Source: Mariprofundales bacterium (GTDB lineage: Bacteria; Pseudomonadota; Zetaproteobacteria; Mariprofundales; J009). From it: 64,000 nucleotides of DNA. The stretch spans positions 6,427 to 70,426 of the forward strand of contig JAUZRF010000052.1 of NCBI GenBank assembly GCA_030950645.1. Direction: 5' to 3'. The notes beneath the pieces are model-generated. The model made no database searches. It was given only the letters and a program-made list of their open reading frames with translations, and was not told the origin of the DNA. Numbering within the stretch: position 1 is the stretch's first letter; each line of letters opens with the position of its first letter. Below are positions 7,922 through 47,985 of this stretch, in pieces. The position numbers were made by a program, and so were the translations under genes.

Positions 7922-7972
7922 GTAATTACTCAGCACCCTGCCCAAAAATGGCTATAACTGCTGAGTAGTTAC
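7922..7972 (-). repeat. MITE-family remnant (copy A): long-form tail plus fused termini, with the palindromic core deleted
   Basis: GTAATTACTCAG-caccctgcccaaaaatggct-ATAACTGCTGAGTAGTTAC. The reverse complement matches the outer 12 bp plus the last about 39 bp of the 153-bp copy at 9056-9208, and about 98 internal bp are missing. Confidence 0.75.
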
Positions 7973-7973
7973 G

Positions 7974-9059
7974 ATGACGCTCCATATCCTTGAACCCACC
8001 CTGATCAACGATTCCGGCCACTGCTATACCGTGGCGCGGGCGTTGATTGATGTTGCCGTGGTTAGCGAGCCGGTCACGCCGATCCATCTATGGGCAGGCA
8101 GGCAGGCGGAGGCGCGGTTGATTGATCTACCAACGGTGCAACTCACGCCCTGCTTTTCGCGGAAATTGCGGCGCATTCAGCTTCATTTTCTGCTCAGACG
8201 GCTGTTGCGTGCTGGGGAGAGTGTGTTTGTGCTTACCGCTTCGCGGGCGGAGCTATTCTCCTATGCCATGATTCCAAAAGCTCTTCGTCAGCGTGGCAAT
8301 GCCGTCTTTTATGTTCATCAGATGCGGATGGATGCCAAGCGCCTTCGGCGTTTGCAGTGGATTGCCCGCCGAGCGCCGGAGATGCGTATTTTGACGACCA
8401 CCGAGGCGTTGGCGCAGTCGATTTCCCAAGCGGGGTTTGCGCAGGTGCGTTGTCAGCCTTATCCCCTTGCGCTGCCCGAGGCGCTGCCTGCGACACCGCC
8501 GTTTCGCCATCTGCTGTTTCCTGGGATGGCACGGATGGATAAAAACCTAGCTTTGGTGGCGGAGGTCATTGGGCGGATGCATCAGCGTGGGTGTACTATT
8601 CCGGTGCATCTGCAGGCGGCACCCAACCATCACGGTGAATTTGCGCCGGATGTGGCGGCATTGCTGCAAAAGATTCGTCATATCGGTTATCCCCATTTGA
8701 CGATGCCGGAGCAGGCGGTGGATGGTGCAGCGTACCTGGATCAGTTTCGTGGCGCGATCTGTTTGCAGCCCTTCCATCGTGACCAATATGCAGATAAAGT
8801 GAGTGGAATTACCCTTGATGCCTTAGGGCAAGCGTGTCCGGTGGTGGTGCGCTCCAGGATTTGGGCGGCTACCATGGTCACCCGTTATGATGCAGGAGCG
8901 GTGGTGGATGGTGACGATGCCAACATCTGGCTCGATGCCATTATCGCGGTGATCGCCGATTACCCCCGTTATCAGGCGAACTGTTGTCAGGCGTATGCAG
9001 AGCTTCGTCAACAGCACGATCCGGCACGCCTATTCGCCGCAATTATGGATACGGTGTAA
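7974..9059 (+). CDS. Uncharacterised protein, possibly a GT-B-fold glycosyltransferase
   Basis: 361-aa ORF in the LPS-type cluster. I recognise no strong family motif. The C-terminal segment (VSGITLDALGQACPVVV) weakly resembles the nucleotide-sugar binding region of GT-B enzymes. The stop codon TAA (9057-9059) lies inside the MITE terminus. Confidence 0.6.
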   Translation: MTLHILEPTLINDSGHCYTVARALIDVAVVSEPVTPIHLWAGRQAEARLIDLPTVQLTPCFSRKLRRIQLHFLLRRLLRAGESVFVLTASRAELFSYAMIPKALRQRGNAVFYVHQMRMDAKRLRRLQWIARRAPEMRILTTTEALAQSISQAGFAQVRCQPYPLALPEALPATPPFRHLLFPGMARMDKNLALVAEVIGRMHQRGCTIPVHLQAAPNHHGEFAPDVAALLQKIRHIGYPHLTMPEQAVDGAAYLDQFRGAICLQPFHRDQYADKVSGITLDALGQACPVVVRSRIWAATMVTRYDAGAVVDGDDANIWLDAIIAVIADYPRYQANCCQAYAELRQQHDPARLFAAIMDTV

Positions 9060-9208
9060 CTACTCAGCTCACTTCCGGTTTTCCCGATAGCGGCGTTGAA
9101 AAATGCTCATTTACAGTAGTAAACTCCGCTTTTTCGCCTTGCTATCAGGAAAACCGGAAGCAATCTGAGCAGTTACAGCCATTTTTGGGTAGGGTGCTGA
9201 GTAGTTAC
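9056..9208 (+). mobile_element. MITE-like palindromic element, long form (copy B, 153 bp) with 8-bp TSD GATACGGT
   Basis: The termini are GTAACTACTCAG and CTGAGTAGTTAC. Imperfect inverted arms of about 36 bp enclose a core that pairs almost to its centre. There is an extra 3' module (agccatttttgggtagggtg plus a third 12-mer). Identical GATACGGT is found at 9048-9055 and 9209-9216. Confidence 0.9.
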
Positions 9209-9228
9209 GATACGGTTAAGGAGCAGCG

Positions 9229-10014
9229 ATGAGTCGTCCACCAATTTCGGCCTATATCATGACATTCAATGAGGCGGAGAAGATTGTTGATGCCATCGCC
9301 AGTGTGCGCTGGGCGGATGAGGTGGTGGTGATCGACTCCTTTAGCACCGATGGCACCGATCGCATCGCAGAGGAGATGGGGGCGCGGGTGGAGTCGGTGC
9401 CGTTTCATACCTTTGGCCAGATTCGCAACACGGCGATGGATGCCTGCCGTCATGATTGGATCTTCAGCCTTGATGCCGATGAGCGTTGCACCCGGTCGGC
9501 AGCCGAGGAGATTCAACGCACGGTGGATCTGCCGGATGCTGTTGATGCCTACTTTATACCTCGCCGCAACTGGTATTTGGGGCGTTGGGTGATGCATTCG
9601 GGCTGGTACCCGGACTACCGTCAGCCGCAACTGTTTCGCCGTGGTGCGCTTGCATTCGACTCTCAGGCGGAGGTGCATGAGGAGTACACCATTCAGGGCA
9701 CGGTGGGGTATCTAACGCAGGATATTATTCAGTTTCCCTACATGAACATCGAGCAGATGGTGCACAAGATGCAGCGTTACTCGACGCTGGGGGCGGAGAA
9801 GTGTGACCGTCAGGGTAAGCAGGGCGGTATTGGTAAAGGGTTGCTGCATGGGCTATGGAGTTTTTTCCGCCATTATGTGATCAAACTGGGGTTTCTTGAT
9901 GGCCGTGCCGGGTTGATGATTGCCGTGGGCAACTTTGAGGGCACCTTCTACCGCTATGCCAAATTGGCTGCCAGACAACAAAACTGGCTGAAAAAACCCC
10001 CATCGCACCCATAA
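9229..10014 (+). CDS. Glycosyltransferase family 2
   Basis: N-terminal GT2 signature ISAYIMTFNEAEKIVDAIASVRWADEVVVIDSFSTDGT and a DAD motif (SLDADE). AAGGAG lies 7 nt upstream of the ATG. Confidence 0.85.
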   Translation: MSRPPISAYIMTFNEAEKIVDAIASVRWADEVVVIDSFSTDGTDRIAEEMGARVESVPFHTFGQIRNTAMDACRHDWIFSLDADERCTRSAAEEIQRTVDLPDAVDAYFIPRRNWYLGRWVMHSGWYPDYRQPQLFRRGALAFDSQAEVHEEYTIQGTVGYLTQDIIQFPYMNIEQMVHKMQRYSTLGAEKCDRQGKQGGIGKGLLHGLWSFFRHYVIKLGFLDGRAGLMIAVGNFEGTFYRYAKLAARQQNWLKKPPSHP

Positions 10015-16918: not shown

Positions 16919-16977
16919 GTAATTACGCAGCTCACGCCTTGCCATCAGCAAAACCGGAAGCGATCTGAGTAGTATAC
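16919..16977 (+). repeat. MITE-family remnant (copy G) with internal deletion
   Basis: gtaattacgcagctcac is joined directly to gccttgccatcagcaaaaccggaagcgatctgagtagtatac (left terminus plus right arm). The flanks gatgttcg and gatgtaac share GATGT. Confidence 0.7.
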
Positions 16978-17067: not shown

Positions 17068-17256
17068 TCAGCGGTTGCAGGTGTTGGCGTGGCCGTGATA
17101 CTCTACGGGGAGGATCACGCCATTCAGTAAGATCAGTAGATCCACCTCCATGCCATCCTTGGTGCGCCAATAGTAGCGATCGACCCTGTTGCCAATATGG
17201 GTGAAGGCTTTTAGTGCTTGATATAAAGGGTGTTGGAGTGATCGTGGCAAGTACAT
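17068..17256 (-). pseudogene. C-terminal fragment of a DUF4143-type AAA ATPase gene
   Basis: The 62-aa ORF contains RYYWRTKDGMEVDLLI...LPVEY, which resembles the C-terminal DUF4143 region (YWRT..G.EVDF...IP.E) of ATPases of about 400 aa. The N-terminal about 85 percent is absent, and the ORF is flanked by degenerate repeats. Confidence 0.5.
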
Positions 17257-17307: not shown

Positions 17308-17390
17308 ACCACTTTTTCGCCTTGTTATCAGGATAATCATAATAACTCTAAGTAGTTGCACTCATTTTTTGGTAAAATGCTGAGTAATTA
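17308..17390 (+). repeat. MITE-family remnant (copy H): degenerate right half plus long-form tail
   Basis: actttttcgccttgttatcagg...taactctaagtagttgcactcattttttggtaaaatgctgagtaatta aligns with the right arm and tail of copy B. The element end overlaps the first ATG of the mfd ORF. Confidence 0.65.
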
Positions 17391-20300
17391 TGCTGCAAAT
17401 GCGGCTTGAATCTGTCTTTCCAGTGCCGATACCGCCTAAAACAGGCATGGTGCCGAGCTCGCTGCTAGGCTGTGCCGCCTCCATGAATAGTCATTCTTTA
17501 TCCGCCTTGGGCTGGCGCCTGTCTGAACTGGCACGGTGCAGGCCGAAGCGATTGCTGGTCTATATTACGCCGGATCTGCGCAGCTATCGTACCTTGGCTG
17601 AGGAGCTCTCATTTTTCCTGCCGCAAGCCGATCATCTATGGCGTTTCCCCGCCTGGGAGGTGCTGCCCTATGATCGCGTCAGCCCGCACCATGCTATTGT
17701 CGGGGAACGATTCGCTACCTTAAGTCGCCTGTTGCGTCAGCCCAATCCGAGCGGGGTGCTGATTACCGCCCTGCCAGCATGGCTACAACGCATCGCACCG
17801 CCATCATCGGTGACCGCCCATGTATGGCAGCTCAAGGTGGGCGATCAACTTGATCTTGGGGCACTCCAGCACCAATTGATCGAGGCGGGGATGCAACCGG
17901 TGGAGCGGGTGATGGATAGTGGCGAATTTGCCGTGCGTGGTGGCCTGTTCGATATCTGGCCCGCCACCTCCAATGCTCCGATCCGTATCGACCTATTTGG
18001 TGACGATATTGACTCGATCCACACCTTTGACATCGATAGCCAGCGCTCTGGTGCTGCTATTACCGCCTTTGTCTCGGTGCCGGTGCGCGAGGTGATTCTT
18101 GATCAACCTGGTCGGGAGACCTTTTGCGCCGCCTTTCGTGCCCGCTTCCCCCATCTGCGCGGCCACCCCATGCTCACCGCCGCAAAGGTGGGACGGCCGC
18201 ACCCTGGTATTGAGGCGCTGCTGCCGCTGGCCTATCACCAGACTGCACGCTTGCAAGATTACCTGCCATCCGATGCGGTAATCGTCAGTAGCAGCGATCT
18301 TCTGCCTCAGCGCGACCAGTTCGGTGCGCAACTGCGCTCCCATTTTGATCTGATGCGCCACACCGAGGATCCCGCGATCAGCCCGCAGGAGCTGTTTGCG
18401 GTCGAGAGCGATATTCGCGCGACGCTGATTACTCAGCAGGAGGCGCAACTGCATTTGCCGCCGGTTGGTGCCGCTCCGGCGTTATCCGATTTCAGCCAGC
18501 GCCAGGCTCCACTCCATGCCTTGCGTGATCGGTTGCGCCAACAGCTGAGTGATGGCTGGCGGCTGCTGCTGATTGCCCATGGCCCGGGTCAGGCCGAACG
18601 GATGCGGGAGGTTTGTGCGCCGCTGGAGTGTGCCTTTGCCGACTGTGCTGGGCTGCACGATCTGCCGGATGCACGCTCGGCTAGCGGCCCGACTATTTTC
18701 CAAACCTTGGGCTTTGTCGAACAGGGCTTCGTGCTGGAACACGACAAGCTGTTGGTGCTGACCGGACGCGAGCTGTTGGGGCAACGCATCAGTGGCAGCA
18801 GGCACCGCTCGATCTCGGCCATTCGCGCCAATGTGTTTCAGCAGTTACAGGAGCTGGTGCCCGGCAACATGGTGATCCATGAGGATCATGGTTTAGGGCG
18901 CTATTGTGGGCTTGAAACCATGGAGGTGGAGCCGGGGCAGCAGGCTGATTTCCTCCATATTGAATACGCTGGTGACGCCTCGATCTTTGTGCCGGTGGAG
19001 GAGCTTGCCCGTCTTCACCCCTATGTTGGCGACTCCAATCCGGCACTAAACAAGCTCGGTAGCGACAAATGGAAGAAGACGCGCCAGCGGGTAGAGACCG
19101 ACCTGCTGGTGATTGCCCATGAGCTGGTAGCGGTGGAGGCGCGGCGACGGCAGGTGCGTCACGAGGTGGTTGATCTTGCGGCGATTCGTGATGCGTACGA
19201 TGAGTTTTGCGCCCGTTTTCCATTTGAAGAGACCGAGGATCAGCAGCAGGCGATTGATCAGGTGTTGGCCGACATGCAGCAGCCACTGCCGATGGATCGG
19301 GTGGTGTGCGGTGATGTCGGTTTTGGCAAAACTGAGGTGGCGATGCGTGCCGCCTTTGTGGCCGCCGCAGATGGCCGCCAAGTGGCGATGCTGGCACCGA
19401 CCACGGTGCTGGCCAACCAGCACTACACCAGCTTGCGCGAACGCTTCGCTGGCACCGGCCTTGAGATTGCGCTGTTATCCCGCCTCCAGGGCAAAGCCGA
19501 GAGTGCGCGCATCATCACTGGGCTGCAATTGGGTACGGTGCAGATCATCGTCGGCACCCATCGGCTGCTCTCTGCTGCGATCAAGTTCTCCAATCTTGGG
19601 CTGGTGATTGTCGATGAGGAGCACCGCTTCGGCGTGAAGCATAAAGAGGCGATGAAAAAGCTCCATGCCTCGGTTGATTTGATGACCATGACCGCCACTC
19701 CGATCCCGCGTACCCTGCACCAGACCCTCTCTGGCCTGCGCAGTGTCTCCATTATCTCCACCCCGCCGAGCGAACGGGAGGCGATTCGTACCATCGTCTG
19801 TCAATTCGATCTTCACCTTGCTGCCGAGGCGATCCGGCGTGAGCTCTACCGTGGCGGGCAGGTCTATTATCTGCATAACCATGTCAAAAGTATTGACCGC
19901 GTGGCGCAAAGGCTGCGCGAACAGGTGCCGGAGGCGGAGATTGGCATTGCCCACGGTCAGATGGGGGCGGCGGTGCTCGATCGCGCCATGATGGCGTTTC
20001 ATGAGGGGCGGCTGCACATCTTGGTCTGCACCACCATTGTGGAATCGGGGCTCGATGTGCCCAACGCCAACACCATGATTGTTGAACGGGCTGATCTGCT
20101 AGGCTTAGCCCAGCTTCACCAGATTCGTGGTCGGGTGGGGCGTAGCCATCGCCAGGCATTTGCGTACCTCTTCACCCCCGATCCGCGTGCGATCACGCCC
20201 GATGCCCGGGAGCGGCTACACGCGATCGCTCAGCACAGTGAGTTGGGTGCGGGCTTCATGCTGGCGCGGCAGGACATGGAGATTCGTGGCGCCGGTAACC

Positions 20301-25319: not shown

Positions 25320-25358
25320 TTGCGAGACTTCCCGCCAACGAATTTCTATGACCAAAAT

Positions 25359-25480
25359 GTAACTGCTCAGATTGCTTCTGCTTTTTCTGATAGCAAGGCG
25401 AAAAAGCGGAGTTTACTACTGTAAATGGGTATTTTTCAACGCCGCTATCGTGGAAAGCCGGAAGTGATCTGAGTAGTTAC
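25359..25480 (-). mobile_element. MITE-like palindromic element, short form (copy C, 122 bp) with 8-bp TSD ACCAAAAT
   Basis: GTAACTGCTCAG...CTGAGTAGTTAC. The core is the reverse complement of the copy B core. Identical ACCAAAAT is found at 25351-25358 and 25481-25488. Confidence 0.9.
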
Positions 25481-25506
25481 ACCAAAATGATCCCAGTGAG
25501 ATCCCA

Positions 25507-33241: not shown

Positions 33242-33329
33242 GTAAACTCCGCTTTTTCGCCTTGCTATCAGTAAAAACCGGAAGCAATCTGAGCAGTTAC
33301 GGGATGTTTTCAATGGGTGCTGAGTAGTT
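33242..33329 (+). repeat. MITE-family half copy (copy D): right half of the palindrome plus a diverged long-form tail
   Basis: gtaaactccgctttttcgccttgctatcagtaaaaaccggaagcaatctgagcagttac + gggatgttttcaatgggtg + ctgagtagtt. It begins at the palindrome centre and ends at the start codon of the next gene. Confidence 0.8.
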
Positions 33330-33330
33330 G

Positions 33331-33987
33331 ATGCCATCACTACGCGTTCGTTATCAAACCTTGGAGTTTGGTCTGACGGATATTCATCTGCGAACGCTGA
33401 GAAACAACCAGGAGTTCTCGGATGATGAGGGTGTGGCCGAAAAGTTAGGGATCTCATCGGCGACATGGCCGCTGTTTGGCATCGTCTGGCCTTCGGGGCA
33501 GGTGCTCGCCCATCTCATGTTTGATTATGAGATTGCAGGCAAGCGTATTTTGGAGGTGGGTTGTGGCATTGCACTGTCGAGTCTAGTGCTGAACCACCGT
33601 CAAGCAGATATTACGGCGACAGATTACCACCCCGAGGCGGCAAATTTTCTTCGGGAGAATACCGCGCTCAATCACGATGCCGCCATCCCTTTTTTCCGCA
33701 CGGGCTGGGGCGATCCCGATGTTGGCCTCGGTAAATTTGATCTTATTATTGGTAGTGATCTGCTTTATGAGCGCGGACATGCGGAATTGCTATCGACTTT
33801 TATTGATAACCATACCAAGCCGCATTGCGAAGTGATTCTGATTGATCCAGGACGCGGCCACCATGCCCGCTTTAGCAAACGGATGGTGAGCCTGGGGTAT
33901 TTGCATCGCCAAACTCGGCCTGAAAACACCGACTATCTGGATAAGCCTCTGCCAAAAGGACAAGTGCTGCACTATCAGCGTTCGTAG
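33331..33987 (+). CDS. Class I SAM-dependent methyltransferase, Methyltransf_16 (putative protein-lysine methyltransferase)-like
   Basis: GIVWPSGQVLAHLM...AGKRILEVGCGIALSSLVL...ITATDYHPEA...GWGDP...FDLIIGSDLLYE matches the METTL21/FAM86-type pattern. I take ATG 33331 as the start. The track TTG at 33328 lies in the repeat terminus. Confidence 0.72.
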   Translation: MPSLRVRYQTLEFGLTDIHLRTLRNNQEFSDDEGVAEKLGISSATWPLFGIVWPSGQVLAHLMFDYEIAGKRILEVGCGIALSSLVLNHRQADITATDYHPEAANFLRENTALNHDAAIPFFRTGWGDPDVGLGKFDLIIGSDLLYERGHAELLSTFIDNHTKPHCEVILIDPGRGHHARFSKRMVSLGYLHRQTRPENTDYLDKPLPKGQVLHYQRS

Positions 33988-34012: not shown

Positions 34013-34165
34013 ATAACTACTCAGCTCACTCCTGACTTTCCTGATAGCGGCGTTGAAAAATGCGCATTTACAGTAGTAAACTCTGCTTTTTCGCCTTGCT
34101 ATCAGGAAAACCGTAAGTAATCTGAGTAGTTACAACCATTTTTGGGTAGGGTGCTGAGTCGTTAC
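34013..34165 (+). mobile_element. MITE-like palindromic element, long form (copy E), no intact TSD
   Basis: ATAACTACTCAG...CTGAGTAGTTAC-aaccatttttgggtagggtg-CTGAGTCGTTAC. It is collinear with copy B over its full length, with about a dozen substitutions by eye. The flanks acagccgg and tttttagg differ. Confidence 0.85.
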
Positions 34166-47816: not shown

Positions 47817-47856
47817 ATTTTTTCTCTCGCCTCTTCTTAATTTTTTATAAATACAT

Positions 47857-47979
47857 GTAACTGCTCAGATTGCTTCTGATTTTTTCTCGATAGCAAGGGG
47901 AAAAAGCGGAGTTTACTACTGTAAATGTGCATTTTTCAATATAGCTATCGGAAAAACCGAGAGTGAGCTGAGTAGTTAC
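47857..47979 (-). mobile_element. MITE-like palindromic element, short form (copy F) inside the rplM-rpsI intergenic spacer
   Basis: GTAACTGCTCAG...CTGAGTAGTTAC is collinear with copy C. The flanks aaatacat and agatgatt are not identical. The element ends 6 nt from the rplM stop codon. Confidence 0.85.
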
Positions 47980-47985
47980 AGATGA

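Follow-up and report, generated by a model that had tools for sequence, protein, structure and literature searches.

A miniature inverted-repeat element supplies the stop codon of a glycosyltransferase-like gene and probably broke its overlap with the next gene in a Mariprofundales bacterium

The 64-kb stretch of DNA analysed here (hereafter the window) belongs to a metagenome-assembled genome (MAG) of an uncultured iron-oxidising Mariprofundales bacterium (Zetaproteobacteria), and contains a 153-bp palindromic repeat between two genes of a glycan- or lipopolysaccharide (LPS)-type cluster. The repeat has the features of a transposable element of the miniature inverted-repeat kind (MITE). It supplies the present stop codon of the upstream gene, a 361-aa open reading frame (ORF) with a putative role as a GT1-like glycosyltransferase (GT), and the protein keeps the length typical of its family under either history of its original stop codon. 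The explanation favoured here, and one that we consider quite likely, is that the MITE inserted into the end of the GT1-like gene and thereby broke an ATGA stop/start overlap with the following GT2-family gene, no later event being needed to arrive at the present sequence. An earlier note made from the sequence alone had proposed such an insertion; its observation is confirmed and its interpretation is supported, with caveats that concern the reconstruction of the allele before insertion.

The element and its insertion site

The element (copy 2 of the family described below) begins with GTAACTACTCAGC and ends with GCTGAGTAGTTAC, which together form a perfect terminal inverted repeat (TIR) of 13/13 bp, and it is exactly bracketed by two copies of the 8-bp repeat GATACGGT, an arrangement reported in the earlier note and found alike in the sequence itself and by repeat search. 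Its left terminus (9056-9068) and an inner right terminus (9164-9176) delimit a core, which is followed by a 32-bp tail (9177-9208) that closes with an outer right terminus (9196-9208). The hairpin arms at 9055-9091 and 9141-9177 are 37 nt long and 86% complementary in the repeat search, which gives that figure for arms of 21 nt as well, and the 121-nt core folds with an energy of -55 kcal/mol (z-score -4.15 against shuffled sequences). No coding capacity for a transposase is present, the only open frame through the element being an 82-codon ORF (8984..9232) in overlap with the GT1-like gene at its 3' end. Weak Rfam matches at 9051-9182, and at 1448-1591 of locus L015, to the plant families MIR7526 and MIR7533 were rejected as far below threshold (for MIR7526, 37 bits where the gathering score is 110); they were discounted because they are attributed to a generic long hairpin rather than to homology.

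The stop codon of the 361-aa ORF consists of bases 2-4 of the element, whose end reads G-TAA-C, so that the gene now terminates in MDTV as the earlier note had read it. The last valine codon, GTG, is itself composite: its first two bases belong to the duplication, and its final G is the first base of the element. Between this stop and the ATG of the GT2 gene lies a spacer of 169 nt (9060-9228) that contains the long hairpin.

The two genes stand third and fourth in a cluster ordered as heptosyltransferase of family GT9, carbamoyltransferase, GT1-like, GT2 and methyltransferase. This order is conserved in two related loci, L003 and L005, from which the flanks of the element can be taken as native. 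Both genes had been described beforehand as members of a glycosyltransferase cluster, and for the downstream gene this is borne out by a match to PF00535. Its start codon is confirmed by an N-terminus (M-S/T/A-R-P-x-I-S-A-Y-I-M-T-F-N-E) kept in the orthologues. The upstream assignment is less direct: a Pfam search of the 361-aa ORF itself gave no match, and its GT1-like character is suggested by distant homologues that are named as GT family 1 or carry PF00534 or PF13692. The product is 100% identical to Q9M26_03665, a hypothetical protein at NCBI from a Mariprofundales bacterium MAG, and the next relative is only 73% identical; homologues number 31. Many columns of the homologue alignment are invariant.

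Table. Features at the insertion site, copies of the repeat family in the window and junctions of orthologous loci; positions are those of the window.
Feature	Position	Strand	Remarks
GT1-like gene, 361 aa	7974..9059	+	from the ORF list; terminal residues MDTV; TAA 9057-9059
Target-site duplication GATACGGT, left copy	9048-9055		coding, codons D-T-V
MITE copy 2	9056-9208	+	153 bp; directly abutted by both GATACGGT copies
Hairpin tip, GAAAAATGCTCATTTACAGTAGTAAACTCCGCTTTTTCGCC	9098-9138	+	near invariant in palindromic elements of unrelated phyla
Target-site duplication GATACGGT, right copy	9209-9216		now non-coding
Shine-Dalgarno AAGGAG of GT2	9218-9223	+	5 nt ahead of ATG 9229
GT2-family glycosyltransferase gene, 261 aa	9229..10014	+	Pfam PF00535, E = 2.3e-16; ATG at 9229
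MITE copy 1	7922-7972	-	51 bp; hairpin deleted between CTCAGC/CTGAGC microrepeats; no target-site duplication
MITE copy 3	16919-16975	+	57 bp; internal deletion derivative
MITE copy 4	17309-17391	+	3' partial
MITE copy 5	25359-25480	-	122-bp core only; perfect 8-bp target-site duplication ACCAAAAT
MITE copy 6	33242-33331	+	3' partial; starts 9 nt past the 2-oxoglutarate dehydrogenase E1 stop
MITE copy 7	34013-34165	+	153 bp; 92% identical to copy 2; no recognisable target-site duplication
MITE copy 8	47857-47979	-	123-bp core, in the rplM-rpsI spacer
Hairpin tip in copy 7	34055-34095	+	
Hairpin tip in copy 5	25400-25440	-	
Hairpin tip in copy 8	47897-47937	-	
L001 junction			ATG CCG TGA; GTGA overlap
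L002 junction (closest, 73%)			GCA TAA AAGGAGTTTCC ATG; 11-nt spacer, no overlap
L003 junction			ATG CCA TGA; ATGA overlap
L004 junction			ATG CGA TGA; ATGA overlap
L005/L006 junction			GCG TGA; GTGA overlap
L007/L008 junction			TTG TGA; GTGA overlap
L009/L010 junction			TCG TGA; GTGA overlap

The allele before insertion and the orthologous loci

When the element and one copy of GATACGGT (9056-9216) are removed in silico, the upstream frame extends to 365 aa and ends AIMDTVKEQR*. The reconstructed junction reads ATG GAT ACG GTT AAG GAG CAG CGA TGA, where TGA overlaps the ATG of GT2 (ATGA, in the context CGATGAG); the ending MDTVKEQR and this overlap are those the earlier note had arrived at by removing the element. 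The empty allele is predicted to contain GCAATTATGGATACGGTTAAGGAGCAGCGATGAGTCG, with a junction reading GATACGGTTAAGGAGCAGCGATGA and no in-frame TAA. In this allele, as had also been proposed, the AAGGAG of GT2 lies inside the upstream ORF, where it forms the codons for K and E. The change at position 361 would be from GTT to GTG, still valine, and only the four residues KEQR would be lost; the 361-aa product ends at the column it shares with all homologues aligned.

Junctions were compared at seven different orthologous loci, drawn from MAGs and metagenomes of related Zetaproteobacteria, with protein identities of 57-73%; a single scan of genome contigs had given just one orthologue. The element is absent from all seven, and an nhmmer search for the family in approximately 85 kb of related Zetaproteobacterial loci returned no members. 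At six of the seven loci the two genes are joined by a 4-nt NTGA stop/start overlap in place of the 169-nt gap of the window, on which ground the overlap is regarded as the normal state of the gene pair, and the CGATGAG junction of the reconstruction is found identically in L004. The expectation in the earlier note that orthologous loci would show an empty site with a single GATACGGT and the 4-nt overlap has thus held in part: the overlap is widespread, but the closest locus, L002, is without it, and a site with a single GATACGGT was not found among the seven. L003 comes from another Mariprofundales MAG, and where its carbamoyltransferase and GT1-like genes are separated (2890-2925) there is a short tandem repeat, cacagagg in three copies, and no MITE.

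Proposed course of the insertion and its consequences

The sequence of events would be as follows. The lineage represented by the window would have lost the native stop of the GT1-like gene before the insertion, so that the frame ran on to a TGA overlapping the ATG of GT2. A non-autonomous MITE from a family abundant in this genome would then have inserted within the last four codons; a transposase acting in trans, presumably of the DDE type, would have cut GATACGGT with an 8-bp stagger and joined the 153-bp element, and repair of the gaps would have duplicated the 8 bp. Because the first bases of the element are G-TAA-C and these came to lie in the matching frame, the ORF now closes at V361, followed directly by the TAA of the element.

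The ATGA overlap with its embedded AAGGAG is an arrangement that would permit coupling of termination and reinitiation, and in Zetaproteobacteria this gene pair normally has it. Judging from the present layout, such coupling would have been lost, in which case translation of GT2 would have to start independently, at the AAGGAG-5 nt-ATG that the right flank has kept. The mRNA would now carry a very stable hairpin, through which the two genes are probably still co-transcribed. Read-through is considered likely since the terminator scan of the region did not call the hairpin as a terminator, and since copy 8, which has the same orientation relative to transcription as copy 2, sits between the essential genes rplM and rpsI, of which rpsI must be expressed. 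These two genes form an operon in well-studied bacteria. The position of copy 8 suggests that an essential operon can accommodate the element. The net effect of the insertion is probably near neutral. The rplM-rpsI spacer with copy 8 (47817-47985) measures 169 nt, equal to the spacer between the GT1-like and GT2 genes.

The repeat family in the window

With up to two mismatches allowed, the terminal 13-mer is found 17 times in the window, where 0.54 would be expected, and none of 100 shuffled sequences reached 17. Copies defined by blastn, nhmmer and alignment number eight, full or partial, in 64 kb (approximately one per 8 kb); they are 51-153 bp long and all are intergenic. The family is modular, consisting of a core of 121-123 bp from the left terminus to the inner right terminus and an optional 32-bp tail that carries a third terminus. 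The duplication adjoins the outer terminus in copy 2 and the inner terminus in copy 5 (where ACCAAAAT stands at 25351-25358 and 25481-25488), which implies that the tailed and core forms have both moved as units.

A perfect 8/8 target-site duplication (TSD) is present in two of the six copies that have both ends, namely copies 2 and 5. The chance of an 8/8 match at ends defined by the TIR is approximately 1.5e-5 per copy, and as both duplications fall exactly at the TIR ends they are not attributed to chance. This second perfect duplication, together with the TIR, the eight-copy family and the element-free orthologous loci, six of which have the NTGA overlap, bears out the earlier identification of the event as a MITE insertion. 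Pairwise divergence among the copies is 7-14%. Covariation is zero among the four full copies; none of their changes is compensatory, and the differences break base pairs. Such a pattern is expected of a selfish palindrome that was amplified recently, not of an RNA under selection. The ORFs tested in the window include no transposase, which likewise fits a non-autonomous element.

Several further observations concern the places where copies are found. At both perfect duplications GGT stands directly beside the left terminus of the element (9053-9055 and 25481-25483), the junctions on the element strand being GATACGGT followed by GTAAC at copy 2 and ATTTTGGT followed by GTAAC at copy 5; with n = 2, this may reflect a target preference. 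Copy 1 ends 1 nt ahead of the ATG of the GT1-like gene (7974), and the gene is thus bracketed by inverted copies of the family. The terminus of copy 4 (GCTGAGTAATTAT followed by G, 17379-17392) overlaps the first in-frame ATG (17390) of the mfd ORF. Copy 7 sits between a methyltransferase gene and fur. Between the partial copies 3 and 4, in the divergent region separating a hybrid histidine kinase gene from mfd, lies a 62-aa ORF (17068-17256, minus strand) that matches only the C-terminal end of DUF4143, with E = 6.6e-6, a little short of the Pfam cut-off, and that probably represents the remnant of a gene.

A hairpin tip shared across phyla

A blastn comparison of the element with plasmids returned matches to its centre alone (element positions 44-84, window 9098-9138), in Halomonas, Pseudomonas, Candidatus Fukatsuia, Haliscomenobacter and the 16S-23S spacer of Staphylococcus aureus, and a pattern scan of IMG/VR contigs gave ten further stretches with this tip (the loci outside the window are labelled L011-L027). 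In nearly all cases the motif caps a palindromic element of approximately 150 bp whose outer arms and termini are unrelated to those of the window and whose apparent target duplications differ; the gamma-proteobacterial type, for example, starts GGCTCTGTACG and is flanked by YTAG. Approximately 29 nt are near invariant in 21 distinct sequences, in the form of A, TGCTCATTTAC, a loop of 4-7 nt, GTAAACTCCGC and T, and this includes the unpaired bases of an internal loop. Covariation is seen in the stem adjoining the tip: both sides have changed at 14 of 22 pairs, and the score is 0.239, whereas shuffled sequences give 0.135.

The tip matched no family in Rfam, was absent from E. coli genomes and gave only chance-level matches in cultured phages, while a literature search for the motif string recovered only unrelated primer sequences. 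A parent insertion sequence (IS) for the gamma-proteobacterial relatives was searched for in plasmids and none was found; identity of these relatives with MITEPsy1 or MITEPsy2 was rejected as their TIRs differ. That the tip of approximately 40 nt is a functional nucleic-acid module, common to elements of Zetaproteobacteria, Gammaproteobacteria and Bacteroidota and to the S. aureus spacer, is put forward tentatively, as a possibility that we rate somewhat doubtful. Should it be correct, the tip could be a conserved cargo or recognition structure, such as a site for a host factor or transposition cofactor or a regulatory hairpin, for which no RNA or repeat family yet exists as a description, and the inserted copy would bring its function into the glycosyltransferase operon. 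This conservation across phyla is the one feature of the element that could lead somewhere new.

The tip also bears on whether the insertion, if real, was in fact neutral. It may be argued that the conserved tip acts as an outward promoter, as a signal for RNA processing or stability, or as an attenuator, and that the element now sets the expression ratio of the two glycosyltransferase genes, and the near invariance of 9098-9138 in 21 elements of distant phyla, unpaired bases included, while the arms covary or are unrelated, is in keeping with this. A promoter-like TTGAAA-18-TAAACT (9096-9125) faces GT2, and all three full copies located between co-directional genes in the window share the same orientation. 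Against these points, the promoter-like site matches the consensus at 9/12 positions and such sites are at chance level in the region (1 found against 1.1 expected), the absence of an Rfam family gives no support, and the orientation of the tip relative to flanking genes varies between taxa, being the reverse in L013, L015, L016 and the S. aureus spacer. A functional role of this kind in the gene pair is consequently judged unlikely.

Weighing of the alternatives

Several results weigh against the insertion into an overlapping gene pair as favoured here. The KEQR tail is present in 0 of 13 aligned homologues, all of which end at the V361 column. In L002 an in-frame TAA occupies the codon directly after that column and is followed by AAGGAG and 5 nt, so that the excised window (GTT AAGGAG CAGCG ATG) and L002 (GCA TAA AAGGAG TTTCC ATG) differ by one codon, the stop. 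The 24-mer of the predicted junction had no match in JGI metagenome contigs, and no empty allele holding just one GATACGGT came to light; the nearest homologue being only 73% identical, the comparison is not one between strains. With regard to transposition itself, the TSD is missing or decayed in four of the six copies with both ends, where the flanks match at 1-4 of 8 positions. No autonomous partner was found in the window (64 kb of the MAG), and a pattern of the TIR with subterminal sequence had 0 matches in metagenome contigs.

The results on the stop codon could be accommodated if the same MITE had inserted one codon upstream of a native TAA, as found in L002, and this TAA had later been lost through a 3-nt deletion in the flank. 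No ATGA overlap would then have been broken, the genes would already have stood approximately 9-11 nt apart, and KEQR would never have been present. This history would agree with the ending of all 13 homologues at V361 and with the single stop codon that separates L002 from the excised window, and the divergence of 7-14% among copies would have allowed time for mutations in the flanks. It nevertheless requires an additional and precise 3-nt deletion while both copies of the duplication stay identical; moreover, the NTGA overlap prevails at six of seven orthologous loci, and the excised frame runs uninterrupted to a CGATGAG junction such as that of L004. We regard this history as distinctly unlikely, and the insertion into an overlapping pair remains preferred.

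A native hairpin that never transposed, either a terminator or a repeat of the repetitive extragenic palindrome (REP) type spread by recombination or by a REP-associated tyrosine transposase (RAYT), with a coincidental 8-bp repeat, appears very improbable. The lack of a TSD in four of six copies, and the intergenic location and stable hairpins of all copies, which recall REP and bacterial interspersed mosaic elements (BIME), would be expected of such a repeat. The two independent perfect 8-bp duplications at the TIR ends, at approximately 1.5e-5 each, would not, nor would the orthologous junctions, in which a 4-nt overlap or an 11-nt spacer leaves no room for a hairpin; in addition, elements of 121-153 bp with 13-bp TIRs are unlike REPs of 20-40 bp, and no terminator was called at the hairpin in the scan. 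An assembly artefact, conceivable because the window is from a MAG and repeats are classic sites of misassembly, is barely credible given that both flanks are syntenic neighbours in other Zetaproteobacteria and meet without a break in a homologous junction when the element and one TSD are taken out, and that a misjoin would create no target duplication.

Other classes of element were rejected on structural grounds. A composite transposon formed by 7922-7972 and 9056-9208 around the GT1-like gene is contradicted by outer flanks without a shared duplication and by the native gene order. The ends of the element (..GTGTAAC and GTTACGA) do not fit the RYYYAAC...GTTRRRY cores of an integron attC site, and the neighbours are housekeeping and LPS genes rather than cassettes. 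REP and REPIN sequences are GC-rich palindromes of 20-40 bp without TSD, whereas the present elements are 121-153 bp long and two of them have an 8-bp TSD.

Significance

The junction provides an example of textbook quality of a MITE editing the end of a gene, in which the allele before insertion can be reconstructed to the base. The G-TAA-C terminus allows the element to land in coding sequence and yet leave the protein nearly untouched. On the arrangement proposed here, a conserved coupled pair in an LPS or glycan cluster would have been turned into two separately initiated genes. A MITE family of high density, at approximately one copy per 8 kb, is also documented in Zetaproteobacteria. The case also serves as a warning for annotation, as gene ends beside such repeats are derived from the element.

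Comparison with known systems

The Correia elements of Neisseria and the ERIC (or IRU) sequences of enterobacteria are multicopy palindromes of 100-160 bp that are found inside operons and are co-transcribed with them, and in function they are the analogues of the window element. Their RNA hairpins affect the processing and stability of mRNA, and some Correia copies carry outward promoters. Both duplicate TA, not 8 bp, and reside in different hosts, and we know of no sequence similarity between them and the window element; an assignment to either was rejected on the 8-bp TSD and the lack of a matching Rfam family. No match to an IHF site was seen in the element by eye. A full-text literature search returned no paper mentioning both Zetaproteobacteria and miniature inverted-repeat elements.

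The duplication and termini of the element recall the IS66 family, whose members produce 8-bp direct repeats and have a terminal inverted repeat starting GTAAGCG (PMC11946415), with one reported to start GTAACC (PMC12888890). The 8-bp TSD agrees, but the ends of the element begin GTAAC and then diverge from GTAAGCG and GTAACCG, and no IS66 transposase or full-length element with matching ends was found in the tested ORFs of the window or in the searches. With agreement over five bases and no partner IS found, IS66 is viewed as a lead rather than an assignment.

Two experimentally mobile elements with TIRs and TSDs are comparable in their effect on genes. MITEAba12 of Acinetobacter, in whose sequence all six frames hold stop codons, becomes fused to a gene at its 3' end and gives it a stop (PMC6382973), and MITEPsy1 of Pseudomonas syringae gave rise to a new allele of avrPphE by inserting in the gene's 3' end (PMC3189936). 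The ends of both are unrelated to GTAACTACTCAGC. MITEPsy1 differs further in its 4-nt TSD and its derivation from IS5, while the MITEAba12 case is a large truncation that leaves a pseudogene, in contrast to the loss of only four residues proposed for the window.

A further close parallel concerns QMITE1 and QMITE2 of Coxiella burnetii. Functional genes, among them ubiB, kdgK, recN and ruvB, are overlapped at their 3' ends by copies of these repeats over 1-50 bp, with little change in protein size, and the authors state that the functional genes affected are all hit at the 3' end (PMC5896051). They resemble the window element as small repeats with TIRs or hairpins that take the place of a gene's final residues or of its stop codon. 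Their sequence and host are unrelated, each QMITE2 copy has a direct repeat of its own, and the text consulted does not describe a broken stop/start overlap in an operon (PMC5896051). The overlap and replacement of gene 3' ends by MITEs is thus already documented, and the insertion at the GT1-like gene is an ordinary event of that sort.

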